Source: an uncultured Acidobacteriota bacterium (GTDB lineage Bacteria; Acidobacteriota; Thermoanaerobaculia; Gp7-AA8). From it: a stretch of DNA of 64,000 bases. The notes under the pieces are model-generated. The model saw nothing but the letters and a program-made list of their open reading frames with translations. It was not told the DNA's origin and made no database searches. The position numbers were made by a program, and so were the translations under genes. Numbering within the stretch: the first letter of the stretch is position 1; every line of letters starts with the position of its first letter. Shown here in pieces: positions 1,293 to 18,870 of this stretch. The stretch spans positions 160,001 to 224,000 of the forward strand of contig CAVUKB010000006.1 of NCBI GenBank assembly GCA_963741955.1, in the 5' to 3' direction.

Positions 1293-1568
1293 TCAGATGA
1301 ACGGCCGTTGGTATCCGATCATCTCGATGACTCCAGCGCAACCCGCAAGAGCGAACCACAACAGAATAGCCACCGCGACAACCAGGCACGTTCCCAGGCG
1401 CGTGCGTCCCCACAGTCGTATCGAGTAGAACACTGTTATCGCGAGAATGACCGCTGTTGAAGCGTAAAACGGCACGGCAACTGACCGGAAGTGATAGCGA
1501 TCTCCCCGCGGCGCCGCAAAGATGGCAGCCGCAGCCTCCTGGCCCCGGAACTTCGAGAAAAAGCCTAT
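1293..1568 (-). pseudogene. Small membrane protein, probably 5'-truncated (candidate orphan Rhs immunity remnant)
   Basis: Two hydrophobic stretches in ORF 1293..1475. The frame stays open upstream to the point where the Rhs fragment stops, and GC is lower than in the flanks. Confidence 0.4.
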
Positions 1569-2227
1569 ACGCTCGTGAGGCGGTTGAGGGCGTCGAAGAC
1601 GTAGATCGTATTCGCGGAGGCGTGTCGCTCGTCACGAACGGTGAGGAGATTTCCGCGCGTGTCGTACGTGTAGGCGATGCTGCTCGCGTCCGGATGCGTC
1701 ACGGTCACGAGACGTCCCTCGGCGTCGTAGCCGAACGTATCGCTTCGTTTCGACACCCAGCTGCCGCAGCTCGCTGCGGGGGTGGAGCATTCCTCGTACG
1801 ATTCATGAGTCTTCCGCCCGATCGTGTTGAGGGTGTAGACGACGCGCTCGTGCTGGTTGCCGCTCGCGTCGAGACGCGTCACGCCGAGGAGCCGGTTCGT
1901 GCCGTCTTCCCATGAGCTCACGGTGGCGTTGCCGAGGGGGAGAGTGGTTTGCGTGAGCCGGTCGCGACCATCGTACGAGAAGCCCGTGACGTAGTCGGCC
2001 CGTTCGGCCGCATCTCCGGCGGACTGAACCGAGCGGATCTCGGTGACGCGGCCGCGAGCGTCGAGTGTGCGACGGGTCTCGACTCCGTTCGGATCGAGCG
2101 TGGATCGCGCGGTGCCGTAGACGTCGTAGTCGTCGAACGAGGTAGTGAGCGATGACGAGGCGCCGGTCGTCACGACGGTCTGGAGAAGGCGTCCCCGGCG
2201 GTCGAGGTTCGCGTCGGCGTCGGAGGC
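1565..2227 (-). pseudogene. Rhs/YD-repeat protein internal fragment
   Basis: Multiple YD-type repeats (YDVYG, LDARGR, YDGRDRL, YDAEGRL, YDTRGNL, FDALNRL). It ends abruptly with no Rhs core signature or toxin tip. Confidence 0.85.
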
Positions 2228-2394
2228 GTGGCTCCACGGATTTTCGTGACGAACCGCGGCCAGGAGGCGAGGGCGTACTCGTACGTGGAACACCGGCGAG
2301 ACCGTCCTCACCGAGACCATCTCAGGGTATCTTGCCTCCACGGATTCCTCTCCCACCACACGCACCACGACCACGAGCTTCGACTCGCGCTGGA

Positions 2395-3000
2395 TCATCC
2401 GGTGTTGATCAGGCGTACGGTGAATGTGGCGCTCGAGCCATCGCACGCCGCGGCTGTTTCAGGCATCCAGAGGCCTCGTTCGAAGAGTGCCGGTTGAGTA
2501 CTCGTGAACACTGGCGAGCCGTTCTTTCTCAGTGATAGCGCGATGTTGTATGAGTCGTCCCGCATCGGCCAGACGGACCACCCGCAGGTTGTCCCGAAGC
2601 CGTCATCCCAGAATTGACAATAATTGCAGGGAAACGTGTAGCTCGCGAAGAATCGAATCCGCAGAGTCCCATCGGCGGCGGGAACGAACTGATAGGTCGG
2701 TGCCGATTCCAGGGTCGGATCCGAATCGCACCACATGTTGAAGTTCGAACAAAGGCCGCTCGAGTCGGGGTTGCACGTCGGATTGGCCCGCTTCATCTGG
2801 AACGCCGCGCGCTTTTCATACGCGGAGCACATGTAGCAGCTAGCGTTGCCGGGGGGTGGTTCGACCGTAGCCGAATCACAGGGATAGATCTGGTACGGAG
2901 GAATTGGCCACACCGCAAGGAGCGGTGTCGCATTGATCGCCAGAAACAACAGAGGAGCCCAGCGTGCAATGAGGCGAAGCGAACGGATTCTCGACATCAC
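2395..3000 (-). pseudogene. Signal-peptide-bearing, Cys-rich N-terminal part of a secreted protein, likely the start of the broken Rhs gene
   Basis: Signal-like N-terminus (RSLRLIARWAPLLFLAINATPLLA), AAGGAAG RBS, many Cys. Same strand as and directly upstream of the YD fragment. Confidence 0.6.
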
Positions 3001-3328: not shown

Positions 3329-4384
3329 ATGAAACAGCTTCTCTGGATACTCCCGATCCTGATGGTCACGCCGCTGTTCGCCCAGAAGCGTCCGGTGCAC
3401 ACCTTCTCCATCGTCGCGCGCGACGCGACGAGCGGCGAGATGGGCGTCGCGGTGCAGTCGCACTGGTTCGCGGTGGGACAGATCGTCCCGTGGGCGGAAG
3501 CCGGAGTCGGCGCGATCGCGACGCAGAGCTTCGTCGATCCTTCGTATGGAAAGCTCGGGCTGGAGATGATGCGCACCGGAAAAAGCGCGCCCGACGCTCT
3601 CCGCGGCCTCCTCCAGTCGGACCGGTCGTGCCAGGTCCGTCAGGTGGCGATGATCGACACCGCGGGAAACGTTGCGACGTTCACCGGCTCGAAGAACATT
3701 CAGGCCGCTGGAGGGATTGCGGGAGGAGAGAAGACGGAGAGCGTTCACTTCGACTGCGGCACCGGAGGAGGGACGATTTCCGTCGGGAAGGACTTTTCGG
3801 TTCAGGCGAACCTCATGTCGAACGACCGGATCTGGCCGGCGATGGAAAAGGCGTTCCGCGAGACGAAGGGCGACCTTGCCGACCGGATGCTCGCCGCGCT
3901 CGATGCCGCACAGGCGGTCGGAGGCGACATCCGCGGGAAGCAGTCGGCCGCACTGATCGTGGTGAAGGCGCAGTCGTCCGGAAAGCCGTGGGAGGATCAG
4001 ATTTTCAACCTCCGGGTCGACGATGCTCCCGAGCCGCTTCCCGAACTGCGGCGGCTGGTCGCGCTGCAGCGTGCCTACAATCACATGAACGCCGGCGATC
4101 TCGCGACGGAGCACGGCGACAACGCGGGCGCTCTCCGCGAGTACTCGACTGCGGAACAGATCGCGGCGACGACGCCCGGGATCCCGCAGAGCCGTTACGC
4201 GGAGATGATCTACTGGCACGCGGCGGCGCTGGTGAACATGAACCGCGTCGACGAAGCGATGCCGCTCTTCGCGAAGGCGTTCGCGATGGAGCCCGGCTGG
4301 CGGACGCTGACCCCGCGTCTTCCGGCGGCGGGACTCCTTCCGGACGACCCGGCACTGATCCGCAGGATCGTCGGCGCGAAGTGA
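3329..4384 (+). CDS. Secreted DUF1028 (Ntn-hydrolase-like) protein with C-terminal TPR-like helices
   Basis: Signal peptide, then HTFSIVARD...GVAVQSHWFAVG...VPWAEAGVGAIATQS, GGDIRGKQSAAL and LRVDD. GGAGGT RBS. Confidence 0.9.
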   Translation: MKQLLWILPILMVTPLFAQKRPVHTFSIVARDATSGEMGVAVQSHWFAVGQIVPWAEAGVGAIATQSFVDPSYGKLGLEMMRTGKSAPDALRGLLQSDRSCQVRQVAMIDTAGNVATFTGSKNIQAAGGIAGGEKTESVHFDCGTGGGTISVGKDFSVQANLMSNDRIWPAMEKAFRETKGDLADRMLAALDAAQAVGGDIRGKQSAALIVVKAQSSGKPWEDQIFNLRVDDAPEPLPELRRLVALQRAYNHMNAGDLATEHGDNAGALREYSTAEQIAATTPGIPQSRYAEMIYWHAAALVNMNRVDEAMPLFAKAFAMEPGWRTLTPRLPAAGLLPDDPALIRRIVGAK

Positions 4385-4575: not shown

Positions 4576-5424
4576 ATGACTCCCGAAGAGCTGTTTCTGA
4601 AGAACCTTCCCCGCATCGAGCGCCTGGCGCGCTCGATCTGCGTGCGTCACCGTGCCTCCCCTGACGAGACGGAAGAGTTCCTCTCGAATCTGCGCCTGAA
4701 GCTGATCGACGACGATTACCGCGCTCTCCGCTCGTTCGAAGGGAAGAGCTCTCTGGAGACCTTTCTCTTCGTCACCATCCAGCGGGCTTTCTACGACTAT
4801 CGAGATCAGCAGTGGGGACGGTGGCGCCCCTCGACCGAAGCGACCAGGATGGGTGAAGCGGCTGTGACTCTGGAGAGGTTGATCTGGAGGGACGGATGGT
4901 CCTTTCCCGAAGCGCGCGACCATCTGATCCAGAGGGATCCTTCCCTCACCCCGGAGGAGGTCGAGACGATCCATGCCGGCCTTCCGGCCCGGTGGCGGCG
5001 GCCTCGCGCAGAGCCCGATCCCGAGCCGGCACTGGAGAAGGCCGTCGGGGCGGAGGGGGCCGACGCGCCGCTGATCGAACGGGAGAGACGTGAGCGTGCG
5101 GCGAGGCTCAGCACCACGGTGAGCGCCGCGCTCCAGTCACTGGACGAGGAGGATCAGCTGATCCTCCGGATGCGTTTCGCGAGCGGCCTCAAGATCGTCA
5201 CCATTGCGACGGTCCTCGGGCTCGATCAACGCCGTCTCTACCGGAGAGTGGAATCACTGATCGCGACTTTGCGGAGAGCCCTGGAGGGGGGCGGACATTC
5301 GGCGGAAGAGGTCCGGGAAATTCTGGAACATGGATGTGATGGATTCGAAGTCGACTTTCGGCCGGCGGAGGAAATTTCCCCGCTGCATCCGTCCAACGAC
5401 CGAAGGGGACTGGATCGTGACTGA
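4576..5424 (+). CDS. ECF-type sigma-70 factor
   Basis: Region 2-like segment (EEFLSNLRLKL...LRSFEGKSSLETFLFVTIQRAFYDY) and region 4 HTH (LDEEDQLILRMRFASGLKIVTIATVLG). Directly upstream of a zf-HC2 protein. Confidence 0.85.
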   Translation: MTPEELFLKNLPRIERLARSICVRHRASPDETEEFLSNLRLKLIDDDYRALRSFEGKSSLETFLFVTIQRAFYDYRDQQWGRWRPSTEATRMGEAAVTLERLIWRDGWSFPEARDHLIQRDPSLTPEEVETIHAGLPARWRRPRAEPDPEPALEKAVGAEGADAPLIERERRERAARLSTTVSAALQSLDEEDQLILRMRFASGLKIVTIATVLGLDQRRLYRRVESLIATLRRALEGGGHSAEEVREILEHGCDGFEVDFRPAEEISPLHPSNDRRGLDRD

Positions 5425-5445: not shown

Positions 5446-8400
5446 ATGACCTCAGGAAGTCATCCGCCAGCCGGAACGCTGGCCGCATTTGCGGAAGGGC
5501 GCCTCGACGGGCAAGAGCGACGCGACGTAGTCGAGCATCTCGCCGGGTGCCGCGGGTGCTACGAGCTGTTCGAGGCGACCGCGCGCTTCGTCGAAGAGAG
5601 AGATGCGACGGGCGGCGAAACCGGGACAGTGGTCCAGTTGAGGAAGGAGTCCGGCGTATCCCTCCGCTGGGTCGCCGCGATCGCGGCGATGCTCCTCCTG
5701 ATCGCCGCGGCGGCGCTGGTACTCCGTACACGAGTCGCCTCGCCGTTCGACACGCTGGTCGCGTCGGCGAATGATCTCCCCAACCGAGTCACCACAGGAC
5801 GTCTGGATGCGGATTTCGCGTACCGGCCACCTCCAGTGGTGACCCGCGGGGCGACCGACGAGCAGAGCCGGAATCCTAAGTGGCTGAAGCTGGAAGGATC
5901 CGCGGGAGATGTACTGGAAGAGAATTCGGCGTCCGCACGCGAGCGGGCGGTCGCGATGCTGCTGACGGGCGACCCGCAGCGGGCGATCGATCTTCTGGAG
6001 AGTGAAGTTCGGAAGCATCCTGACGATGCGTCGGCGTGGAACGATCTTTCCGCAGCGAGGCTGGCGGCAGGCGAGAAGCTGCGAGACCCGTCACTGGCGG
6101 TGAAGGCGCTCGCCGCGGCGGACCAGGCCCTGAGGATCGAGCCGAACATGGCGCCGGCAGTGTTCAACCGTGCGCTCGCTCTGGAGGAGATGGGCCTGCT
6201 CGTACAGGCTCGCGAAGCGTGGCAGCACTTTCTCGAGCTCGATTCGTCGTCGGGGTGGGCTGCGGAGGCGGAGGCACACGTCCGGAAGCTGTCGTTCCAG
6301 AGCGAATCGAAGCGATGGAAGGAATCGATTCCAGAGCTCGAGTCGGCTGCGGTGGGAGGGAATTCGAAGCAGGTGAGCCGAATCGTCGCCGAATTCCCCG
6401 AGGAAGCGCGCCGGTGGGGAGAGGCGGTGTACCTCGGCGCGTGGGCTGATGCCCGGCAGAAGGGAGATGCGACGGGCGCCGCGAGGCAACTGACCATCGC
6501 GCGCGAGCTCGGAGAGGCCCTGCACGAAGTGAATGGGGAATCGATGCTGCGCGATGCGGTGGCGGCGATCGACTCGAGTCGCGGCGACGCGCTCGACGCT
6601 CTCACCCGCGGCGAGTTCCTCTATCGGGAGGGGCGGATTCTCCACAGCCGTAATCAGGCGACTGCCGCCGAGAAAATGCTGCGCGATTCGGAGAGTCTCC
6701 TCCGCCGTGGCGGCAGCCCCATGGCCCTCGTCGCGCGCTACTACGTCGGCAGCACCCTGTACGCTCAGACGAGGATCAGAGAGTGCGCGGACCTTCTCGA
6801 CCAGCTGGCGGCGGAGCCGCTCGAGTCGAAAGGGTACGACGCGCTTGCGGCCCAGATCGCATGGGAGAGAGGGCTTTCACATTGGGTGATGGGAGAAGCG
6901 GACGACGCGCTGGAGATCCTGACCGCCGGACGCGATCTCGCCAGCCGTCAATCGGAAAACGATCTGCGTGCATCGTTCGACGTATTCCTCGCGGACTACC
7001 ACGAGCATCTCGCCGAGCCGGCGCTGGCGTGGACCTACCGGCGCGAAGCACTGGAGTCGCTCGCGCGGCAGGGCAACGTGTTCCGGTCGAACGTCTGCCT
7101 CGACGCTCTGAGCAGGACGCTCGCCGAGCGCGACGACTGGGCCGGAGTGACGTCGGTGGCATCTCTTCTGGTGGAGCAGGGCGACGCGGAGAATCCGCTT
7201 CCGAACCACCATGCGCTCCTGTGGCGCGCGATGGCCTATCTGGAGAGGGGCGATGCGGCGTCCGCACGCGCGGACCTTGCACAGCTCGACCGGTGGATTG
7301 CGATGGAAAAGGACCAGGCGATTCACGAAGGACTGGTCTCGGATCGGGAGAGGCTCGAAGCGCTGATCGACGGCGAGAGCGATCCGTTGCGAGGAGCGGA
7401 GGAGATCAGCCGTACCATCGATTACGCGTCATCGCGGGATCTCGACGTCGCGGTACCTCAGCTTCTGCTCGAGCGAGGGCTGCTGGAGCGGAAGGGAGGA
7501 GCGTTCGAGAAGGCGCAGAGCGATCTCGACCAGGGTCTCCGGCTGGCGGAGGAGGAACGAGGAAAGGTCTCGGATCTCACGAACCGCGCCTCGCTCGACA
7601 CTACATGGGACGGACTCTTCGACGCGGCGATCGATCTCGCCGTCGAACGGAGAGAGGATGATCGAGCGTTTTCCCTGGCGGAGCGCCGCCTTTCCCGCGA
7701 CTTCATCGACGCATCGAAAGGAGATGCGATCGCCGCGACACCGGCGTCGCTCCACGATCTGGAGACCGCGTTGTCGGCGGACGCGGCATTGCTCGAGCTC
7801 TCGTCACTTCCGGACAGCGTCGCAGTGACTCTCGTCCGTCGCGGGTCATCGATCACCTGGCGACGGCCGGTCGGGCGGCAGGATCTCTCGTCGCGAGCCG
7901 GCGCGTTGCTGAGCGAGGAGCCGAACCGTTCCCGCGAGGCGGCAGAATCACTTTTCTCCGAGCTGATCGCCCCGGCGACGCAAAGTCTCGCCGGGGTCAG
8001 GTCTCTCGCGATCGTCGCGGATGCGCATTTCCGGAAGATTCCCTTCGCTGCCCTGATCGATCCGGCCGATGGGAAGCTGCTCGTCGAGAAGTTCCAGCTG
8101 ATCGAACCCCCGTGTGCCAGCATTGCCCTCGAGGCATCTCAGAAAATCAAGCGCAAAGTGCGCCACGACGGGATCGCCCTGCTGGTCGATCCGCAGTCGA
8201 GAGATCCGCGGTACGCCGCGCTTTCCGGGGCGGAGGCAGAGGTGGACCGGCTCGCAGCGCTCTATCCGAATGCGGTGACGCTGCGCGGCGACGACGCGAC
8301 GCGAGAACGGGTGCTGGCGATGCTCCCCACTGCTGCCCTGGTCCATTTCGCAGGACACGGAGAGGCCGATCCGGCTCACCCGCGGAGGTCGAGCCTTCTT

Positions 8401-8781
8401 CTCTCCGGTCCGCACGGCGCCGCGACGCGCCTCGAGGCTGCGGAGATCGCATCGCTGAGGCTCCCCGCCACCGCTCTGGTGGTCCTCGGCGCGTGCGATT
8501 CCGGGAAGAGTCTCGGGCGGAACGGGATCGACAGCGTCGGCGCGGCGTTCCTCGCCGCCGGTGCGACTCGGGTTGTGGCCTCACGCTGGAAGATCGAAGA
8601 CGCTGGCGCGGCGGAGCTCCTCTCGCGTTTTCACCGGCGGCTGACCCGCGGGGAGACGCCCATCGCCGCTCTCCGCGGCGTGCAGATCGACGCGGCACGG
8701 GCGAGCGACGGAAGCTTGCGACCTCTTCGCGAGTGGGCGGCGCTCTACCTGATGGGCGGTTCCGAAGAACTGCTAAACTGA
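5446..8781 (+). CDS. zf-HC2 anti-sigma / single TM / TPR / CHAT (caspase-like) protease fusion
   Basis: N-terminal HLAGCRGC (HxxxCxxC), TM WVAAIAAMLLLIAAAALVL, TPR-like repeats (AWNDLSAA, AVFNRALALEEMG), and C-terminal CHAT motifs IPFAAL, VHFAGHG, LVVLGACDSG, AFLAAGA..VVASRWKI. AAGGAG RBS. Confidence 0.92.
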   Translation: MTSGSHPPAGTLAAFAEGRLDGQERRDVVEHLAGCRGCYELFEATARFVEERDATGGETGTVVQLRKESGVSLRWVAAIAAMLLLIAAAALVLRTRVASPFDTLVASANDLPNRVTTGRLDADFAYRPPPVVTRGATDEQSRNPKWLKLEGSAGDVLEENSASARERAVAMLLTGDPQRAIDLLESEVRKHPDDASAWNDLSAARLAAGEKLRDPSLAVKALAAADQALRIEPNMAPAVFNRALALEEMGLLVQAREAWQHFLELDSSSGWAAEAEAHVRKLSFQSESKRWKESIPELESAAVGGNSKQVSRIVAEFPEEARRWGEAVYLGAWADARQKGDATGAARQLTIARELGEALHEVNGESMLRDAVAAIDSSRGDALDALTRGEFLYREGRILHSRNQATAAEKMLRDSESLLRRGGSPMALVARYYVGSTLYAQTRIRECADLLDQLAAEPLESKGYDALAAQIAWERGLSHWVMGEADDALEILTAGRDLASRQSENDLRASFDVFLADYHEHLAEPALAWTYRREALESLARQGNVFRSNVCLDALSRTLAERDDWAGVTSVASLLVEQGDAENPLPNHHALLWRAMAYLERGDAASARADLAQLDRWIAMEKDQAIHEGLVSDRERLEALIDGESDPLRGAEEISRTIDYASSRDLDVAVPQLLLERGLLERKGGAFEKAQSDLDQGLRLAEEERGKVSDLTNRASLDTTWDGLFDAAIDLAVERREDDRAFSLAERRLSRDFIDASKGDAIAATPASLHDLETALSADAALLELSSLPDSVAVTLVRRGSSITWRRPVGRQDLSSRAGALLSEEPNRSREAAESLFSELIAPATQSLAGVRSLAIVADAHFRKIPFAALIDPADGKLLVEKFQLIEPPCASIALEASQKIKRKVRHDGIALLVDPQSRDPRYAALSGAEAEVDRLAALYPNAVTLRGDDATRERVLAMLPTAALVHFAGHGEADPAHPRRSSLLLSGPHGAATRLEAAEIASLRLPATALVVLGACDSGKSLGRNGIDSVGAAFLAAGATRVVASRWKIEDAGAAELLSRFHRRLTRGETPIAALRGVQIDAARASDGSLRPLREWAALYLMGGSEELLN

Positions 8782-8843
8782 CCCCACGCAGATACCGCAG
8801 GAAAAGGGTCCGCGAATTCCTTGATCCCGAAGGAGGAGGAGCC

Positions 8844-9599
8844 ATGCAGTTTCGCATTCGGTTTTTCGGAATGGTCTGTCACGTTCTCGACGGCGAACCG
8901 GTCCGGGCAGTGTTCCTGAAAGAACCGTCCGGGGAAGATCCGAACCACAAGGCACGCATGATCATCGACGAAGATCTCGTCGATCCGCAAAGCGTGCAGC
9001 AGATCTTCCCGGGCACCACGCCGACTGGAGGAAAGTACACTCTTCCACTGACCCATCGCGGACTCGCTTTCGCTGGTGCCACGACAACGAAGCCGCAGGC
9101 GGCGGGATCGTTCAGTGATCTCGTTCCGAGCCTCGTCCAGATCACCGAAACGATGATGAGCGAGATCAATGCGGGAGTGTACGCGTCCGACACGACGGCG
9201 TGGGACGTGATACAGGCGTGGTTCGATTATCCCGGCGGATCATTGACTGCAACGCCCTATCCGCAGCAGGGAAAGGTGGTGTGGGACCACCACCCGGGGC
9301 GGCCGTCCTACCTTCGCCCGGTCGGGAAAGAGGTCTATCTCCAGTGCGAGAACGACGAGGCCGTTCTCCTGGTCACCGACGGGTCGACCGATCCGGCGAA
9401 GAGGCTGATTCTGACGCCCCGGGGGCAGCGTCTCGACTTCAGCCTGGAGAACGGATCGACGTACGGCAGCGGTCACTGGAAGCTGAACTACTCGTTGAGC
9501 GTGAAGCCTGTTCCGGACGACCCCGATCTCCTCCCCGAGAGCGACGGTCCGACGCTGCAGAGTGACGTTCCGGGTTGCTCGAATTCGCAGTTCCCCTGA
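8844..9599 (+). CDS. Uncharacterised 251-aa protein ending in SDVPGCSNSQFP (CHAT-associated)
   Basis: Strong AGGAGGAGGA RBS before ATG 8844, protein-like beta-rich sequence, no signal peptide. The true start is inside the 8112..9599 ORF. Confidence 0.85.
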   Translation: MQFRIRFFGMVCHVLDGEPVRAVFLKEPSGEDPNHKARMIIDEDLVDPQSVQQIFPGTTPTGGKYTLPLTHRGLAFAGATTTKPQAAGSFSDLVPSLVQITETMMSEINAGVYASDTTAWDVIQAWFDYPGGSLTATPYPQQGKVVWDHHPGRPSYLRPVGKEVYLQCENDEAVLLVTDGSTDPAKRLILTPRGQRLDFSLENGSTYGSGHWKLNYSLSVKPVPDDPDLLPESDGPTLQSDVPGCSNSQFP

Positions 9600-9676: not shown

Positions 9677-10363
9677 ATGTCGCGCAAGCTCGAATCTTTT
9701 CATCGGATTACGTCGACGAGTGCCCATCACATGGTGCTCCGGCGGCGGCTGGTCGCACTCTGGAGATCCCGACGCCTCGCTGCCGGAGCCATCGATCATC
9801 TCGCGTTCGGCGTGGTGATTCTCGACGGCGGCCGGCGCGTGCTCTCGATGAACAGGGCCGCGAGCGCGATCGTGGATCGCCGCGATGGGCTCTCGCTCAG
9901 CGAAGGGTCGATTCACCCGACCGACCGGCGCACCCGTTGCGCGTTCGACGAGTTCGTCAGAGAGGCGCTCGCACCGCGCTCCAGGCCATCCGGTGACGAC
10001 GCCGTGCTGACCATCGATCGCGCTTCGGGCTCACGCCCCTACACCGTGGTGGTTTGCCCGTTGAACGATCAGGCCTCGTTTCACGGCTCGTTCCGAGCCG
10101 CGGTCGCACTTTTCATCATGGATCCCGATGCGCCGGTGGAGCTCAGGCCGCAACGTCTGCGAGCGCTCTATTCGCTCACCCCCCGTGAGACGGAGCTCGC
10201 CAGCCGCCTCCTCGGAGGTTCGACGCTGGACGACATCGCACACCAGCTGGGAGTCACCATGAACACCGTCCGCTGCCAGCTCAAGAGAATCTTTCAGAAG
10301 ACCGGCACCAGTCGCCAGTCGGAGCTGGTGATTCTGCTCGGCTCACTGCGCATGGTCGCGTGA
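9677..10363 (+). CDS. PAS-like + LuxR HTH transcriptional regulator
   Basis: AIDHLAFGVVILDGGRRVLSMNRAA (PAS-like) and YSLTPRETELASRLLGG...TVRCQLKRIFQKTGTSRQSEL (LuxR HTH). The start position is uncertain. Confidence 0.85.
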   Translation: MSRKLESFHRITSTSAHHMVLRRRLVALWRSRRLAAGAIDHLAFGVVILDGGRRVLSMNRAASAIVDRRDGLSLSEGSIHPTDRRTRCAFDEFVREALAPRSRPSGDDAVLTIDRASGSRPYTVVVCPLNDQASFHGSFRAAVALFIMDPDAPVELRPQRLRALYSLTPRETELASRLLGGSTLDDIAHQLGVTMNTVRCQLKRIFQKTGTSRQSELVILLGSLRMVA

Positions 10364-10894: not shown

Positions 10895-11437
10895 TCACGG
10901 CCATCCTCTCATCGGCTGCAACCTCGCCGCGTCGCGGCAGGCGGGACAGAACCTCGGTTCTTTGACGTCGATCAGCTCGACCGAATGCGCAGATGCCATC
11001 ACGCAACGGTAATCGTCGCAGTGCCTGAGACCGAGCATGTGTCCGGTCTCGTGGATCGCTTCCTTCAGGAGGCGACCGGTAAGGAGGGGCAGCTCTTCTT
11101 CGAGCCCGTAGAACGTCTGCCGGAGACGGTGATAAGAGACGACTCCGGCGACCCCTCCGAGCTGGGCCTCACCGAAGACGAACGTGAGAATCGGGATGTA
11201 GAGGTCGAGGGGAGTGACTCCGAGAACGAGCTCGCGTCCGTTCTTCCTGGCAGCCAGCTTCTCGATCAGCTCCGATGAATGGAACTGCTGCCGCTCGGGA
11301 TGCAGAGTTCCCGACGGATCGAGCGGAGATTCGTCGATGCGGGCGCTGTATCCGAGCTCCTGGAACATCGGAAAACGGATCGCGTCCACCAGCGGAGGAT
11401 CGGGCGAGCCGATCCTGACGAGGCGGATCGTTTTCAT
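10895..11437 (-). CDS. Archaemetzincin-family Zn metalloprotease (peptidase M54)
   Basis: DLYIPILTFVFGEAQLGG, KEAIHETGHMLGLRHC..YRCVM, terminal FCPAC. ATG overlaps the upstream stop (ATGA). Confidence 0.9.
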   Translation of the reverse strand: MKTIRLVRIGSPDPPLVDAIRFPMFQELGYSARIDESPLDPSGTLHPERQQFHSSELIEKLAARKNGRELVLGVTPLDLYIPILTFVFGEAQLGGVAGVVSYHRLRQTFYGLEEELPLLTGRLLKEAIHETGHMLGLRHCDDYRCVMASAHSVELIDVKEPRFCPACRDAARLQPMRGWP

Positions 11438-12795
11438 CGTGCGTGCGCAGTCTGCCGAGACCAGCCGTACTTCTTGAGCTTGTTGTGCAGCGTCACCCGG
11501 TCGATGGCGAGAATCTCCGCCGCCCTGGTCTGATTCCCTCCGCACTCCTCCACGACCTGGAGGATGTAGGCACGCTCGATGTCCTCCAGCTTCTTGATCT
11601 CGCTCTCGTGGCCGTCTCCATTCGGACGGACCGCGAAGTCGTTCTCCCTCAGCTCTGACGCTGTGGCCACGACCATGGCTCGCTCGACGGCATTCTCGAG
11701 CTCCCGGATGTTGCCGGGCCAGTCGCAGCGCTGCAGCAACTCCATTGCAGCAGGGGTGATCCCTGAGACCTTCTTGTTCATCGACATCGCAAACTTGCGG
11801 ATGAAGTGCGCGGTGAGGAGCGGAATGTCCTGCTTCCGTTCGCGGAGAGGCGGGAGCTCCACCCGGAAGACGTTCAGCCGGTAGAAGAGGTCCGGACGGA
11901 ACTTCCCTTCCTCGATCAACGTCTCGAGGTTCTTGTTCGTCGCGGCGACACAGCGGAAATCGACTTTGATCGCCTGGTGACCTCCGACTCTCGTCACCTC
12001 GCGCTCCTGGAGGACGCGCAGCAGATCCGTCTGGGTCTTCAGGGAGATGTCCCCGATCTCGTCGAGAAAGACCGTTCCCCCTTCGGCGACCTCGAATTTT
12101 CCCTTCTTCCGGTACTGCGCGCCGGTGAAGGCCCCTTTCTCGTGACCGAAAAGCTCGCTCTCGAGAAGCGTCTCAGTGAGTGCGCCGCAATGGATGGCAA
12201 CGAGAGGGTGGAATCTCCGGGGACTCGCAGCATGGACTGCGCGCGCGACGAGCTCTTTCCCGGTGCCACTCTCGCCGGTGATCAGCACGGTTGCATCCGT
12301 GGGGCCGACCGTTTCGATCGAGTCGAGCACCTTGCGCATGGGGGGACTCTGTCCCACGAGCTCGGAAGGAAGAACGCTGCTGGCGATGGTGTCGCGCATC
12401 CGGAGATTCTCGGCTTGTGCGTGTCGCAGGTTCAGAGCGTTCCGGACGATGTGAGTGATGTCGTCGGGGTCGAGCGGTTTGGTCACGTAGTCGAACGCGC
12501 CGTTCTTCAATGCGGTGACGGCGGTGTCCACCGAGGCGTAGCCGGTCATGATGATCACCGAAAGATCCGGGTCGATCTCGTGGATCCGTCGCTGGAGCTC
12601 GATCCCATCGGTGCCGCGCATCTTGATGTCGACCAGCGCCACGTCCCAGCGCCGCTCCGCGAGACGGGTCAGTGCGGCGTTCGCGTCTTCGGCCGATCCG
12701 ACCTCGTAATCCTCGTCACGGAACCAGCGTCCGAGTGAATCGCGGACACTCAGCTCGTCGTCGACGATCAGTATGCTTCCTTTCGATTGGCTCAC
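11434..12795 (-). CDS. Sigma54-dependent response regulator (NtrC/AtoC type)
   Basis: Receiver domain (ILIVDDE, DIKM), AAA+ with [14 protein letters not shown] and FLDEIGD, C-terminal Fis-type HTH. Confidence 0.97.
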
Positions 12796-12811
12796 GGGAT
12801 CCTCCTTGGTC

Positions 12812-14455
12812 TCAAACCGCGCACGACTCGGGGACGGGATCGGTTGCTGCGACTTCGGCCGGGAAGATCACCGTGAACTTCGTCCCTCTTCCGGGAGACG
12901 AGTCGACTTCGATCCTTCCGCCGTGTCTTTCGACGATTCGTTTACTGATTGCGAGCCCCAGTCCGACTCCATGTCCGTCGCCTTTCGTCGTGACGAACGG
13001 CTCGAAAAGATTCGGGAGAACGTCGTCGGGAATGCCGCAGCCGTTGTCTTCGACCACCAGCGCGACCTCGTGCGGCTCGCTTCGGGATGACGTCGCGATC
13101 CGCAGCGCACCCTCCTGGTCCATCGCGTCGATCGCATTGATCACCAGAGCCAGGAGAACCTGCTCGATCTGAGACGGATCGCCGTGAACGGTCGGAAGGT
13201 CGTCACTCAGATCGAGAGTGGCGGTGATGTTCGCCAGCTCCAGCTTGTGGGCCACGAGCTGCATGCAGCGGCGCACCACCGGATTCACCTCCACGTGCTG
13301 GAGGTTCATGGGCGAGGTACGGGCAAAGGTGAGGAGGTTCCTCACGATCTCCCCGCAGCGGCGGCTCTCGCTCTCGATCAGCTGGAGCGATTCGCTCATG
13401 TCGGTCCGTCGATCCTCGATCCGCTCTCCCCGGTCGATCCATTTCCGGATCAGTTTCGCGTAGGTGAGAATGCCCGAGAGGGGGTTGTTGATCTCATGGG
13501 CCACGACTGCGGCCATCTTTCCGAGTGAGGCGAGCTTCTCCGCCTGCAGCATCTGAGCGTGTATCGACTTCAGCTCGTTGCTCTTCTCTTCCACCCGGTC
13601 CTCGAGCGTGCGTGCCCACGCGGTGCTCTCCTCGTGGGCTTCGGCCAGCTGCCGGCTCATCTGGTTGAACGAGAGTGAGAGCTCACCGAGCTCGTCGCTC
13701 GACGAGACGTGAATCTGGACTCCGAGCTGGCCGCCGCCGAGCCGGTCCGTCGCTCTGCGTAGTGCGCGAACGGGGCGATGGACCACACCCCACACGAAGA
13801 GGCCGATGAAGATCGCGACCGCGAGAGCGCCGAGGAGACTGTAGAGGAAAAGCCGGTGAAAGCTGCTGGCGAGATTCGCATCTGCAGAAGCGAGAGAGAG
13901 ATTCGTGTCGAGTACGCCGAGTACTTTCTGGTCCGGCGAGTGGGCGTGGCATGCGGCATTCCAGCAGCTCGGCTGGTTGTAGATGGGATTGATGATTCCG
14001 AGCACCCGTTCACCGCCCGCCTGGTAGATGCGGAAGCGGTCCGGGCGGGTCAGGTGAGTCAGCGGTTGGGATTGAGCGTGACAGCCATAGCAGGCTTCGG
14101 CACTCTTGTCGACGTAGCGGTCCACTTCAGAGGGGTGACTGGAGAAGCTGATCTTTCCTTCCCGGTTGAAGATCCGCACCCGGACCATGCCCGGTTCGTC
14201 GGCCATGGTCCGGATGATGTGATAAAGCCCGTCGCGATCGTTCCGCAGCATGTAGTACGTCGTGCTGCGGTGAAGCACGTCGCTGACCCGGCCGGCGCTC
14301 TGGAGCGTCGCCGATTCGAGGTCACGACGGTGGAGGCGGATGGTGAGGAAGCCGAGCGTCGAGATCACCAGCAGAAGCGTGGCGAGAAGCATGAAGAAAA
14401 GCTTCCCGCCGACACTCCGGCGAATCCGGTTGAACGCTGACATTCGCTTCCGCAC
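12812..14455 (-). CDS. Membrane sensor histidine kinase with HAMP domain and heme-c-like motifs in the extracytoplasmic domain
   Basis: Two TMs flank a sensor domain with CYGCH and CWNAACH. HAMP, H-box AHEINNPL, and G-boxes DNGCG and GVGLGL. Start could be ATG 14443. Confidence 0.93.
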   Translation of the reverse strand: MRKRMSAFNRIRRSVGGKLFFMLLATLLLVISTLGFLTIRLHRRDLESATLQSAGRVSDVLHRSTTYYMLRNDRDGLYHIIRTMADEPGMVRVRIFNREGKISFSSHPSEVDRYVDKSAEACYGCHAQSQPLTHLTRPDRFRIYQAGGERVLGIINPIYNQPSCWNAACHAHSPDQKVLGVLDTNLSLASADANLASSFHRLFLYSLLGALAVAIFIGLFVWGVVHRPVRALRRATDRLGGGQLGVQIHVSSSDELGELSLSFNQMSRQLAEAHEESTAWARTLEDRVEEKSNELKSIHAQMLQAEKLASLGKMAAVVAHEINNPLSGILTYAKLIRKWIDRGERIEDRRTDMSESLQLIESESRRCGEIVRNLLTFARTSPMNLQHVEVNPVVRRCMQLVAHKLELANITATLDLSDDLPTVHGDPSQIEQVLLALVINAIDAMDQEGALRIATSSRSEPHEVALVVEDNGCGIPDDVLPNLFEPFVTTKGDGHGVGLGLAISKRIVERHGGRIEVDSSPGRGTKFTVIFPAEVAATDPVPESCAV

Positions 14456-14466
14456 GTGGCTCTCCC

Positions 14467-15633
14467 CTACTGCGCGACCGCCGGTTCTCCGGCGACCATC
14501 GGTTCCTCTTCCACCGTTCCGACTTCATGCGAGAAGATCGGAAGGTACTTCACTGCGAGGGCGAAAAGAGTGACGCCGACCGCGACGATGCTCATCGTGA
14601 TCGCGACCTCCGGCCACTTCGGGACGTAGGTCACCCCGGCTGCGCCTTCCATTCCGGTGATACTGATGTTCAGCCGGTTGATGACGAACCCGAACACCAC
14701 GAGGATGGAGATCAGATAGAGACCCTTCGGATTCTCACGGAACTTCGGGATGAGAAGAAGGATGATCGGAATGATCAACGCGGTCGCGATCTCGAGGAGG
14801 AAGAGATTCGCTTCGTAAGAGCCGTCGAAGATGTACTTCAGTGCGTCTCTCCGATAGAGGCTCTGGAAGCGCATCACCGCGTAGAGGATCAGAACCACGG
14901 TCAGGATCTTCCCGAGCCTGGCGAGAATCGACGGCTGCAGCTGATGCCCGAAGTGTCGCGCGGACATGGTCGACTCGAAGATGGTCATCGCGATTCCGAC
15001 CGCGATCGCGGAGATGAAGAAGAACACCGGCAGAAGGCTGCTGTACCACAGCGGGTGGAGTTTGCCGGCCATGATCAGGTAGAGGCTTCCGAGAGACGAC
15101 TGATGGAGAGTCGAAAGAAGGACGCCGAGGATGACGATCGGAAGCGAGATCGCATGGATGATCCGCAGCGGCCGCTCCATCCGGAAACGCTCGAACACCA
15201 CTGGCAGGAACTCCAGCGTCAGGACCGTGGTGTAGAGCATCACACACCAGCCGACCTCGAACATCACCGAATGGGGATTCCACATCACCAGCGGATGCCA
15301 GATGTTCCATGGCTTGCCGAGATCGAACATCAGCGCCGCGCAGACCAGCAGATATCCGAGGTATGCAGTGAGCAGCGCAGGTCGTGAGACCGGCTTGAAT
15401 CGTTCGGCGTGAAAGATGTGCACGAATGCCATCAGGGTGAAACCGCCGGCGGCCAGCATCACGCCGCAGAGGACGTCGAAGCCGACCCAGATACCCCAGG
15501 GAAAGTCGTCGCTGAGGTGAGTCGCACCGCCCAGCCCCTGGGTGAAGCGGATCCAGGTGGCCCAGGCGCCGGCTGCGAGGATGAGGACGAGCACCACGCG
15601 CCAGAAAGTGATTCTGGGGGCTCGGAATGTCAT
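14467..15633 (-). CDS. NrfD/PsrC-family integral membrane subunit (HybB/HmcC-like)
   Basis: GLGGATHLSDDFPWGIWVGFDVLCGV, SVMFEVGWCVMLY, LSTLHQSSLGSL, about 10 TMs. Confidence 0.93.
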   Translation of the reverse strand: MTFRAPRITFWRVVLVLILAAGAWATWIRFTQGLGGATHLSDDFPWGIWVGFDVLCGVMLAAGGFTLMAFVHIFHAERFKPVSRPALLTAYLGYLLVCAALMFDLGKPWNIWHPLVMWNPHSVMFEVGWCVMLYTTVLTLEFLPVVFERFRMERPLRIIHAISLPIVILGVLLSTLHQSSLGSLYLIMAGKLHPLWYSSLLPVFFFISAIAVGIAMTIFESTMSARHFGHQLQPSILARLGKILTVVLILYAVMRFQSLYRRDALKYIFDGSYEANLFLLEIATALIIPIILLLIPKFRENPKGLYLISILVVFGFVINRLNISITGMEGAAGVTYVPKWPEVAITMSIVAVGVTLFALAVKYLPIFSHEVGTVEEEPMVAGEPAVAQ

Positions 15634-16415
15634 TCTGCACCTCCTTCGTCCCGCGGCTCACGATGGCGTTTCTCTTCACGCTCGACTGCGGCGACGTCGT
15701 TGCGTCGGTTGGTGATCCAGTAGATTCCGCCCAGCAGGACGAACCCGAGACTGGTGATGTCCGGGATCTTGGAAAGGGCCTGGTGGGTGAGCAGAGGCAT
15801 CGCCTCCTGATCGTAGTCGGGCTTGAAGCCGAATTTCTCGAACGGGATCGGAGAGAGGAGAAAGACCGACGTCCCGCCGACTTCCCGCTCGCCGAAGAGA
15901 TGGTTCATGTACTGGCCCGGGTTGTCCCGGATTCTCTTGCGGGCCTCGGCGAGGAGCTCGCCGCGGTCGCCGGAGATGGTCGCGCCGGTCGGGCAGGCAT
16001 CGGAACAGGAGGTCGCTTTACCGGCCGCGGTCAGGTCGGGGCACATGATGCACTTGCGGACGCGCGGAATCACCGCGTTCCATTCGTACTTCGGAACGCC
16101 GAACGGGCAGGCGACCATGCAGTACCGGCAGCCCATGCACTTGTCGGCGTCGTAGAGCACCGGGCCCCAGGCGGTCTTGTACAGCGCCCCGACCGGGCAG
16201 ACGGAGGCGCAGGAGGGATCCTCGCAATGCATGCAGAGCTTCCGCATGAACTTCTCATCGCCCGCGGTGAGAACGGTGGTGAACTTGTGCTCCGAGGTCC
16301 TGGTTTCTTCGGCGATCGCCGAATCGTAGGGGAGTGAGTTTTTTTGGGCGCAGGCCTCCTCGCATTGCTTGCAGCCGATGCAGAGTGTCGCGTCGTAGAG
16401 TAACGCTCTCGTCAT
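15630..16415 (-). CDS. 4Fe-4S dicluster protein (HybA/HmcB/FdnH-like) with C-terminal membrane anchor
   Basis: CIGCKQCEEAC, CMHCEDPSCASVCP, CMGCRYCMVACP, KCIMC...CSDACP, GEREVGGT, C-terminal TM. No Tat signal seen. Confidence 0.93.
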   Translation of the reverse strand: MTRALLYDATLCIGCKQCEEACAQKNSLPYDSAIAEETRTSEHKFTTVLTAGDEKFMRKLCMHCEDPSCASVCPVGALYKTAWGPVLYDADKCMGCRYCMVACPFGVPKYEWNAVIPRVRKCIMCPDLTAAGKATSCSDACPTGATISGDRGELLAEARKRIRDNPGQYMNHLFGEREVGGTSVFLLSPIPFEKFGFKPDYDQEAMPLLTHQALSKIPDITSLGFVLLGGIYWITNRRNDVAAVEREEKRHREPRDEGGAE

Positions 16416-17275: not shown

Positions 17276-18870
17276 AGGAGTCTGCGCGATAGGACGTAAG
17301 TTCGGCGCTTCCTGATGATCTCGGGTGACGTCCGCTCGCGAGCGGCAGAACCGGGCCATCGAAGCGCCTTGGGGTTGATGGAGCCGTTCTCGGGGAGGTG
17401 GCAGCGCGAAACACTTGCTCGGCGGGACTTTTCGGGGTTGGATACTGCTCTGCCGGGGCTATTCGACCGCAACCAGAGCGCTCATTCGCTTCAGATTGAT
17501 CACCAGGCACACCAGAGCCCATTCGCCGGCAACTTTGCGCGTCCCGCGGAGACTGAATCGTCGAAAGCCGAGAACGTTTTTGACCCAGCCAAACACCGGC
17601 TCAACGATCGCCTTTCGCCGGCGATAGACCGCCTTGCCTGCAGGTGAGTCCAACTTCTGCTTCATCCGCAGAGTAGCGGGGAGCGTCGTCTCAGCTGCGG
17701 TTTCTTTGCCTTCTCGTCCGAGAGAAACATACGCATCGATCTTCTTCTCCTCCAACTCGATGAACGAGCTTTCCGACTTGTAACCGGTGTCGGCAACAAC
17801 CTGGTCGGGGCTTGTTTCGCAATTCTGTTCGACCACCTCGACCAAAGGCACGAGTGATCCGCTGTCCGCCGCAGATTGTGTGATCTCGAATCCGACGATG
17901 AGTTGGTTATCGGCATCGACTGCGATCTGCGCGTTGTAGCACTGCTGAAATCCTTCCTGGGACTTCATGATTCGGCTCTCGGAATCGGTGAAGTTCTCTT
18001 GCGCTTTGTCCTCAGGTACGCCGAACTTCCGTTTGAATGGCTTACCCTTCTTCCTGGCCGGATCATCGTCGCCTTCGGAGCGACCAGCCTTCGTGTCCAG
18101 TTCCCGCTGTCGCTGTTCGAGTCGCTCTCGTGCATCTCTGATCTTTCGGATGCGTGTTTCCCGGCGCTGGAGCTCTTCGGGCAACTCATCCCCGCGTCGA
18201 TCAACCCCGTACTCGGCATCCTCCCGGGCATCCTCTTCCGCCGCTGTGGCCAAAATCTCCGCGATCTCCTTCTCGAGCTTCGCTTCTTCCTTCTTCATCC
18301 GATCGTAGCTCATCGCCTTGTGCTTGCTGGCATTCGCTCGCACCTTCGACCCGTCGATTGCGATCCTCCCGAGCGTAACTAACCCTGCCTCCTGAGCGGT
18401 CCGAATGATCTGGACCAGCAATGAGCTGAATGCGTCCACGTTTTCAAGCCGAAAGTCGCAGATGGTCCGATGCGATGGAAAGTTCCCGGCTGCAAGATAC
18501 CGGACGGCGATATCTTCATCGATCCGCCGGGCAATCTTGCGCGAGGAGAACGTTCCCGTCAGGTACGAATAGGTGATCAACTTGAGCATCATCCTCGGCT
18601 CGTAGGGCTGCTTCCGCCTGCCGTCGCCCTTGTACCGCTCGTAGAATGCACTCAGATCAAGCTGATCGATCATGTCGGAAACGAAGTGCGCCAAGTGACC
18701 CTCAGGGAGCCACTCGTATGGCGAGGGCGGAAGCAGCAGCGACTGCTCCGGTCGGTATGGCCTATACGTGGTCGGCATGACCTAATCTTAACATATTATC
18801 GTTACTACTAACCATTCACCTTTTATCATGCCGATTTGCCGCGAACCGGGTTTCTACCGCGCAGACTCCT
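17276..18870 (-). mobile_element. IS1182-family insertion sequence, complete (~1.6 kb)
   Basis: Terminal inverted repeats AGGAGTCTGCGCGATAG (17276-17292) and CTACCGCGCAGACTCCT (18854-18870), 16/17 match. Ends overlap CCAG/CTAG; GC is lower than in the flanks. Confidence 0.92.
17459..18778 (-). CDS. IS1182-family transposase
   Basis: LLPPSPYEWLPEGHLA, PYEPRMMLK...SSRKIA, IAIDGSKVRANASKHKAMSY, NFTDSESRIM, YNAQIAVD, ADTGY, YRRRKAIVEPVFG. Confidence 0.96.
   Translation of the reverse strand: MPTTYRPYRPEQSLLLPPSPYEWLPEGHLAHFVSDMIDQLDLSAFYERYKGDGRRKQPYEPRMMLKLITYSYLTGTFSSRKIARRIDEDIAVRYLAAGNFPSHRTICDFRLENVDAFSSLLVQIIRTAQEAGLVTLGRIAIDGSKVRANASKHKAMSYDRMKKEEAKLEKEIAEILATAAEEDAREDAEYGVDRRGDELPEELQRRETRIRKIRDARERLEQRQRELDTKAGRSEGDDDPARKKGKPFKRKFGVPEDKAQENFTDSESRIMKSQEGFQQCYNAQIAVDADNQLIVGFEITQSAADSGSLVPLVEVVEQNCETSPDQVVADTGYKSESSFIELEEKKIDAYVSLGREGKETAAETTLPATLRMKQKLDSPAGKAVYRRRKAIVEPVFGWVKNVLGFRRFSLRGTRKVAGEWALVCLVINLKRMSALVAVE

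Follow-up and report, generated by a model that had tools for sequence, protein, structure and literature searches.

A family of proteins with an invariant C-terminal cysteine as a candidate substrate or ligand of a DdvA-like TPR-CHAT anti-sigma factor in Acidobacteriota

We analysed a 64,000-nucleotide stretch of DNA (the window) from an uncultured Acidobacteriota bacterium of the class Thermoanaerobaculia, focusing on the gene at 8844–9599 (+ strand), which encodes a 251-residue protein of an undescribed family and follows the gene for a DdvA-like transmembrane anti-sigma factor with tetratricopeptide repeats and a CHAT protease domain (TPR-CHAT). Members of the family share an invariant histidine and an invariant cysteine, are linked to TPR-CHAT genes and end in tails that are specific to each locus, and we consider the 251-residue protein a good candidate for the substrate or ligand of the TPR-CHAT protein. 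Tentatively, we favour a reading in which it is the dedicated substrate or pro-protein of TPR-CHAT, whose cysteine-containing tail would dock on its own body, be read by TPR-CHAT and probably be cut. The sigma/anti-sigma design is already known from DdvA, to our knowledge the only TPR-CHAT anti-sigma factor studied so far; of the partner family, the invariant tail of its members and the tails specific to each locus, no description was found in the literature searched. In this acidobacterial lineage the DdvA design comes with an obligate, co-evolving partner gene whose product bears a short, putative recognition tail, which provides a concrete ligand or substrate candidate. The partner itself combines a confident predicted fold that has no structural match, an invariant Cys–His pair and a split into exported and signal-less forms.

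The 251-residue protein, its family and its C-terminal motif

The gene was defined from its translation, its homologues and an AlphaFold2 model. Its open reading frame (ORF) comprises 251 codons and ends in KPVPDDPDLLPESDGPTLQSDVPGCSNSQFP, that is, ...DVPGCSNSQFP, followed directly after Pro251 by the stop codon (9597–9599, + strand), as a sequence-only reading of the window had described. Direct reading of the DNA places a strong Shine-Dalgarno sequence, AGGAGGAGG (8831–8839, + strand), 4 bases 5' of the ATG at 8844, and the in-frame stretch upstream, which runs open into the preceding gene, contains no hydrophobic segment. On account of this ribosome-binding site and the lack of an upstream hydrophobic segment, we assign the start to 8844, and the protein hence has no signal peptide, again as the sequence-only reading had it. 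The possibility that 8844–9599 is not a gene was rejected on the strength of its protein-level conservation and ribosome-binding site.

The protein had no match to a Pfam or NCBIfam family at E ≤0.1 or to a PADLOC family at E 0.01, and 90 family members compared with Pfam gave only scattered chance matches, none shared by more than two members. Against PDB sequences, a profile search reached a best E of 0.11, and a word-indexed homology search with the single protein as query returned the query alone. Relatives were found by a HMMER search of 1.84 billion representative proteins, which yielded 15 homologues with 28–37% identity, all 15 of them with C-[SAT]-[ND]-[STN]-x-[WYF]-P as their C-terminus; a profile search added 12 more proteins, all ending in CSN[ST]QWP and one attributed to a Thermoanaerobaculia bacterium. 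When the phylum was sampled evenly, the first profile had matches in 5 of 401 genomes, all in the window's own bacterial family. A profile search within that family was positive for 66 of 124 genomes, with as many as 7 matches in one genome, a tally that takes in two unpublished genomes, G492 and G493, and becomes 64 of 122 without them. The window's own genome has one copy.

To survey the surroundings of these genes we took flanks of up to 8 kb per side for 60 matches, namely 59 of the strongest listed plus G004:C27; the set skips G492, G493, one 2.2-kb contig and the already sampled G000, G008:C55, G011:C509 and G025:C191. Together with the window and three further loci this gave 64 loci containing 70 family ORFs, all from one Thermoanaerobaculia family. 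C-x4-[WYFL]-P-stop ends 65 of the 70 ORFs, and the strict motif C-[STAG]-[NDSTQE]-[STNA]-x-[WYF]-P fits 57. The five exceptions to the looser pattern are L057, where the motif is followed by a Gly-rich extension, L075, which is one residue shorter, L076, with Val at −2, and L073 and L097. Among the 65 conforming tails, Cys at −7 and Pro at −1 are present in all; −8 is Gly in 36 and Glu in 12, −6 is Ser in 49, −5 is Asn in 48 and Asp in 6 (54 of 65 with Asn or Asp), −4 is Ser in 42 and Thr in 15, −3 is variable, and −2 is Tyr in 28, Trp in 23 and Phe in 12.

An alignment of 90 family sequences places these residues in the context of the whole protein. His35 (codon 8946–8948, + strand) and Cys245 (codon 9576–9578, + strand) are invariant in 90 of 90, and several further positions are nearly so: Asn203 and Pro227 (88 each), and Phe7, Gly9, Gly132 and Pro251 (87 each). 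Position 250 is aromatic in 86 and position 247 is Asn or Asp in 77, whereas position 211 alternates between His (67) and Asp (19). In the window's protein a Pro/Asp-rich linker, residues 228–243 (9525–9572, + strand), joins the body to the terminal octapeptide G-C-S-N-S-Q-F-P, residues 244–251 (9573–9596, + strand), which was delimited from the 90-sequence alignment and the AlphaFold2 model. Across the 90 sequences the stretch from Pro227 to Cys245 is rich in Pro, Gly and Ala and runs from 7 to 76 residues (median 22). By these alignments, conservation within the family is highest in the terminal motif.

Prediction from the single sequence was poor (predicted local distance difference test score, pLDDT, 39), as was the ESM Atlas model, which was not used; we relied instead on an AlphaFold2 model built from the 90-sequence alignment, with a mean pLDDT of 91.5 and a predicted template modelling score of 0.90. 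The model bears out the beta-rich body proposed from the sequence alone, with 15 strands and 6 short helices. The sequence-only reading also proposed a flexible tail, and here the model divides: the linker, with pLDDT 72 at residues 231–240, is probably flexible, whereas residues 241–250 score higher, with pLDDT 88 and a strand at 248–250, and the terminal motif is predicted to dock on the protein's own body.

Searches with this model found no match at E ≤0.001 with Foldseek against PDB and the viral structures of BFVD, and no match at Z ≥2 with VIA-align in wide and second-look modes. VIA-align typically gives a best Z of 7–8, and an empty list is atypical and may reflect either an unusual fold or a technical failure; we therefore claim that no fold match was found rather than that the fold is new. 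Mu-homology domains make up 8 of the first 31 ranked Foldseek rows, a weak lead, as their E values are no better than 0.025 and their TM-scores close to 0.1.

Linkage to TPR-CHAT and the DdvA-like sigma/anti-sigma pair

The module in the window begins with a gene (4576–5424, + strand) for a 282-residue sigma-70/extracytoplasmic function (ECF)-type sigma factor, identified by TIGR02937 (E 3.8e-20) and by Sigma70_r2 and r4. After a gap of 21 bases comes the gene for the DdvA-like anti-sigma factor (5446–8781, + strand), a protein of 1111 residues with matches to zf-HC2 (E 5e-5), TPR families and CHAT (E 2.9e-50). Its zinc-finger anti-sigma motif spans residues 12–38 (5479–5559, + strand; PF13490 zf-HC2, 23.8 bits against a cut-off of 22.2). 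The hydrophobic segment WVAAIAAMLLLIAAAALVL, at about residues 75–95 (5668–5730, + strand; hydropathy 2.7–2.9), is the only one before the TPR region and forms a single membrane helix. The CHAT domain (PF12770) covers residues 831–1104 (7936–8757, + strand) and contains His971 (8356–8358, + strand) and Cys1017 (8494–8496, + strand), which we take to be the catalytic pair from general knowledge of the caspase motifs GHG and ACxSG. Both residues are invariant in all 45 aligned TPR-CHAT proteins linked to a partner, as are Arg322, Glu326 and Trp333 of the TPR part; these three equal the catalytic pair in conservation and may be where the free C-terminus of the partner binds.

The 1111-residue protein matches chain B of PDB 8ROT (8rot_B, DdvA; E 3.5e-17) over residues 6–292, and PMC11506125 gives this structure as the DdvA–DdvS pair of Myxococcus xanthus. 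According to the same paper, the TPR-CHAT region of DdvA is periplasmic, and signal-induced self-cleavage followed by cleavage by RseP is proposed; the signal is unknown and, in its authors' view (Discussion), probably a protein (PMC11506125). By analogy with DdvA, the neighbour in the window would have its zinc finger inside and its TPR-CHAT region facing outward, and the layout of zinc finger, single helix and TPR-CHAT thus matches the orientation that the sequence-only reading had assumed. The two systems have in common an ECF-type sigma gene followed by a zinc-finger, one-helix protein with a periplasmic TPR-CHAT region and its His–Cys pair (PMC11506125; PDB 8ROT, 8RW5). They differ in that the consulted passages of PMC11506125 mention no co-encoded partner, whereas here the partner is an obligate third gene, and in that the authors' own search, as given there, found DdvA-like proteins solely in Myxococcota and one Comamonas, whereas the present design occurs in Thermoanaerobaculia. 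The window's sigma factor had no match at E 0.001 among solved sigma factors, and any kinship to DdvS itself is conjectural.

A TPR-CHAT homologue lies within 5 kb of a family member in 57 of the 64 loci, usually directly adjacent and on the same strand, one copy in L076 excepted. The sequence-only reading had suggested that proteins ending in C-S-N-S-x-aromatic-P occur beside CHAT genes in related genomes, and had named conservation of the last eight residues and linkage to CHAT as points to check; the suggestion proved sound on each, with the tail in 15 of 15 HMMER homologues and 65 of 70 locus ORFs and the linkage in those 57 loci. Three of the seven loci without a TPR-CHAT gene end at contig ends (L061, L079 and L110). 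The window's genome has 2 CHAT genes in 5.4 Mb, and the second, on contig C10, has no family member nearby. With a broader profile we obtained weaker matches in five genomes of five other families of the phylum, and in all five of these loci a family-like ORF lies directly 3' of a TPR-CHAT ORF; by this distribution the pairing is old.

The sigma gene is a less constant companion, with a homologue 5' of the TPR-CHAT gene in 23 of the 64 loci. Genes for further proteases lie close by in some loci, with an S8 subtilase found in 8 of them, a trypsin-like peptidase in 4 and a clostripain C11 likewise in 4. This recurrence hints, from gene order, at a multi-protease module. A second protease gene stands between or beside the family member and TPR-CHAT in L063, L064, L067, L068 and L073, in L070 and in L097. 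L059, L074 and L113 have a split arrangement, in which the sigma gene is followed by a gene for a short zinc-finger/membrane/TPR protein (~280–520 residues), then TPR-CHAT and the family member; the anti-sigma and protease parts are here on different proteins, and TPR-CHAT has an N-terminal hydrophobic segment.

Proposed reading of the tail and the alternatives

Seven loci have two or three paralogues, giving 9 within-locus pairs whose bodies are 29–57% identical, a range that for several pairs comes from short local alignments only. Their last 8 residues match at all 8 positions in six pairs and at 7, 6 and 5 of 8 in the other three; pairs from different loci agree at 4.2 of 8 positions on average, and full identity is seen in 1.2% of 2994 such pairs, a comparison among related genomes that is indicative rather than a formal test. 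The shared stretch extends over 10–14 residues, such as HLSVECSNTLYP in L087 and GILETTxACSNSGYP in L055, and includes positions that vary between loci. In five of the seven loci (L087, L055, L017, L056 and L120) the codons of the shared tail differ synonymously, which argues against recent gene conversion as the cause there. Taken together, the sequences suggest that a locus-encoded factor reads the tail in trans, and TPR-CHAT is the likely reader because it is the only gene common to nearly all loci. As a separate observation, the family member of L054 (G477) is exported and lies more than 8 kb from any CHAT gene, and its 12-residue tail SVDVGCSNSAYP recurs identically in signal-less copies beside sigma and TPR-CHAT genes in L078 and L081, from two sister genomes.

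To determine how far the tail is confined to the family, we searched for it among other frames. The strict motif ends 58 of 4150 frames in the loci, 57 of them family members; the remaining frame lies directly 3' of a TPR-CHAT gene and has almost the same tail as the adjoining family copy. In the window's genome it ends 1 of 26,917 frames of at least 100 residues, against 0.04 expected from shuffled tails, so chance does not explain it. We also scanned 185,579 species genomes with a degenerate DNA pattern for G-C-S-N-S/T-Q-W-P-stop, obtaining 19 stretches that correspond to 17 distinct sites (L120–L122 are overlapping windows on one contig). Nine of the 19 are true family members, all in Thermoanaerobaculia or Acidobacteriota records and all beside TPR-CHAT. 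The remaining ten come from other phyla; none of them terminates a family ORF, and we rejected them as apparent chance matches.

This confinement bears on whether the tail might be a sorting signal, with CHAT acting as a sortase-like transpeptidase that cuts the tail and attaches the body to a cell-envelope acceptor, a scheme with parallels in the clan-CD peptidase PorU of type IX secretion and in legumain-type ligases. The position of the motif at the extreme C-terminus, the short leaving group that would follow the conserved Asn/Asp and the adjoining clan-CD peptidase with an intact catalytic pair would suit such a scheme. Known sorting signals, by contrast, serve many families, whereas the sharing among unrelated proteins that this predicts was not encountered in the window's genome or the loci (one frame in 26,917; 57 of 58 frames from one family). 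The layout of LPXTG- or PEP-CTERM-type signals is also absent from the window's protein, in which no membrane helix or basic tail comes after the motif and the stop follows Pro251. Tails that differ between loci are unlike a shared sorting tag, and signal-less members could not reach an envelope sortase. We regard this scheme as very improbable.

Our favoured reading, that of a dedicated substrate or pro-protein, draws on the linkage, the old pairing, the intact His–Cys pair of CHAT, the family-confined tail, the tails shared by paralogues, the docked tail and the nearby proteases, which as sequence and model evidence are consistent with it. From these we infer physical recognition, cleavage at a particular site, a Cys–His contact and coupling to the sigma factor, as follows. 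In the resting state the octapeptide G-C-S-N-S-x-aromatic-P, carried on a variable Pro-rich linker, would fold back onto the beta-rich body, placing Cys245 near an invariant or almost invariant polar site of His35, Asn203 and the His or Asp at 211. TPR-CHAT would recognise approximately the last 10–14 residues and cut in or next to them. Legumain, a clan-CD peptidase, cuts after Asn, and one option is a similar cut after the conserved Asn/Asp, present at −5 in 54 of 65 tails; the conserved 8-residue block equals the span of protease P4–P4' pockets. The cut would free the body from its Cys plug, and in loci like the window's, where the protease doubles as the sensor domain of the anti-sigma factor, engagement of the partner would be linked to liberation of the sigma factor that 4576–5424 encodes. 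Were this so, the partner would be a possible answer to the question of what such a TPR-CHAT region senses; for DdvA, the authors of PMC11506125 expect a protein.

Several observations weigh against this reading. Four loci with full flanks (L054, L057, L058 and L107) have a family member and no CHAT gene nearby, and the related genomes are non-independent samples, so that the counts overstate their statistical weight. In L080 the shared tail is identical at the DNA level, and gene conversion could account for that locus. The relatives in the five other families have the motif replaced, retaining just a Cys near the end (7–14 residues from it, mostly followed by Pro, Ala or Thr, then Gly), which we equated with Cys245 by eye because the profile alignment ends short of it; the octapeptide is on this account specific to the present clade. 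Docking of the tail on its own body, as AlphaFold2 predicts, would compete with capture by the protease. An invariant Cys and His would also suit a catalytic or metal site of the protein itself, for which a protease would be superfluous. Finally, the partner and TPR-CHAT could not meet as drawn, since the window's partner is signal-less and TPR-CHAT is taken to face the periplasm. A complex prediction with TPR-CHAT residues 363–1111 and the full partner, both supplied as alignments, scored 0.00 against a mark of 0.32 and speaks neither for nor against binding; its input begins after the TPR residues Arg322, Glu326 and Trp333, which are invariant.

The intrinsic site deserves separate consideration. 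Here Cys245, His35, Asn203 and His/Asp211 would form a catalytic centre (Cys-His-Asn/Asp) or a metal site, and the protein would act enzymatically, or would sense metal or redox state and pass a signal to TPR-CHAT while itself staying uncut, much like CnrX with CnrY. The invariance of His35 and Cys245 (90 of 90 each), the near-invariance of Asn203 (88 of 90), the exchange of His (67) for Asp (19) at position 211, a swap typical of ligands or triads, the confident docking of the tail in the model and the persistence of a near-C-terminal Cys in distant relatives whose motif is otherwise different all agree with such a site. It does not explain why divergent paralogues of one locus have identical residues at tail positions that vary freely between loci, and no known enzyme or metal-protein fold emerged from Foldseek, VIA-align or the PDB profile search. 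We consider an intrinsic site unlikely, if worth keeping in view.

The compartments of the two proteins raise a further puzzle. Of the 70 family members, about 24 carry a signal peptide or lipobox, about 44, the window's protein among them, start at the first conserved strand and two are unclear, by classes judged by eye from the N-termini, with automatic flags that differ for L055, L061 and L071. Where the N-terminus of a TPR-CHAT protein is complete, a single hydrophobic segment nearly always precedes the TPR region, and it either follows a zinc-finger domain or stands at the very start. The copy nearest TPR-CHAT is signal-less in 22 of the 23 sigma-linked loci (the exception is L018), and the compartment mismatch that the sequence-only reading had pointed out in the window thus recurs. 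In the sigma-linked L016, L055 and L056, and in the truncated L017, there is also an exported paralogue whose tail is identical or almost so. Charges flanking the membrane helix did not separate loci with exported partners from those with signal-less ones.

One way to explain why a single operon (L016, L055, L056 and L017) can encode both a signal-less and an exported paralogue with a common tail is a dedicated inhibitor, whose tail would sit in the CHAT active site as a pseudo-substrate and hold both protease and anti-sigma factor inactive; copies without a signal would shield the cytoplasm from the protease until its export, and exported copies would act in the periplasm. Securin is a pseudo-substrate inhibitor of separase, and cytoplasmic staphostatins inhibit secreted staphopains encoded just upstream. 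The signal-less copy here likewise lies immediately 3' of the protease gene, with gaps of about −190 to +60 bases, and the evidence from linkage and locus-specific tails applies equally to an inhibitor. Three points count the other way: AlphaFold2 docks the tail on the protein's own body, the invariant His35 and the conserved Asn203 in that body are left unexplained, and a TPR-CHAT protein awaiting export would be unfolded if it takes the Sec route, so that protection of the cytoplasm may be needless. We judge an inhibitor to be quite unlikely.

The mismatch could also be part of the mechanism, with signal-less copies serving as cytoplasmic baits whose tails would reach the outward-facing TPR-CHAT only after a breach of the inner membrane; phage holins, pore-forming toxins and lysis of kin cells are possible causes of such a breach. 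We assign this a low probability; it takes up the danger sensing that the sequence-only reading had proposed. Were it true, the DdvA-type anti-sigma factor would be a leak or danger sensor with a built-in ligand, and the family would be the first in which a protein signal of a TPR-CHAT anti-sigma factor has been identified.

The sequence-only reading had raised a further idea, that of a gasdermin-like pore-former held off by a C-terminal peptide that the CHAT protease removes, to which we attach almost no weight. A bacterial gasdermin would share with the present protein a length of about 250 residues, a beta-rich body, a short C-terminal segment packed on it and an adjoining caspase-like protease. 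No gasdermin or pore-former fold was found by Foldseek against PDB (E ≤0.001) or in the two VIA-align runs (Z ≥2), though the atypically empty VIA-align list makes this test weaker, and Pfam gave no match beyond chance, so that neither fold nor sequence similarity was seen. Known bacterial gasdermins act from the cytoplasm; here the protease faces outward and about a third of the relatives (~24 of 70) have a signal peptide or lipobox, which fits poorly with a cytoplasmic gasdermin.

Several known systems resemble the proposed substrate arrangement in part. Separase–securin and Craspase (Csx29) with Csx30 each pair a TPR-CHAT protease with a single dedicated protein that controls it or is acted on by it; the result in Craspase is passed on to a sigma factor. 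Both systems are cytoplasmic, and their partners, which have no sequence relationship to the present family, do not end in a fixed motif, whereas the partner here has a folded beta-rich body without a fold match. In the sigma-E response of E. coli, the PDZ domain of DegS reads the C-terminal YxF of many misfolded porins; the likeness lies in a C-terminal aromatic motif and an envelope protease controlling an anti-sigma factor, with tail reading being a proposal in the present case, and the difference in that one dedicated operon-encoded family takes the place of many porins and the protease is fused to the anti-sigma factor. The pro-peptides of matrix metalloproteinases make these enzymes cysteine-switch zymogens. 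They share with our proposal a conserved Cys on a removable segment, which here would plug a His-containing site until a protease removes it; the 251-residue protein differs in having no metalloprotease motif or fold, and its Cys–His contact is a proposal.

Other genes in the window

Downstream of the partner gene is one for a LuxR/GerE-type regulator with a PAS-like stretch (9678–10363, + strand; GerE E 1.5e-7), its start at 9678 picked by eye from an upstream GGAGG. No homologue of it was found in the other 63 loci, and it probably lies outside the module. On the opposite side, an exported DUF1028 protein (3329–4384, + strand; E 2.6e-65) with a C-terminal TPR-like stretch is encoded directly 5' of the sigma gene. 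Just upstream of the module, an RHS-repeat protein fragment (1565–2446, − strand; RHS_repeat E 4.7e-20) and a 201-residue Cys-rich exported protein without a family match (2395–3000, − strand) could form a polymorphic-toxin locus (1565–3000, − strand).

Further downstream, 10895–11545 (− strand) encodes a Peptidase_M54 (archaemetzincin-like) metalloprotease (E 9.7e-20). The genes in a row at 11434–16415 (− strand) encode a sigma-54-dependent response regulator and a HAMP histidine kinase, followed in the list by an NrfD-type membrane subunit and a 4Fe-4S protein; together they resemble a two-component system next to a complex of the polysulphide-reductase type. A DDE transposase (DDE_Tnp_1, DUF772) is encoded at 17459–18778 (− strand), where the G+C content is 0.57–0.59 against about 0.63–0.66 nearby.

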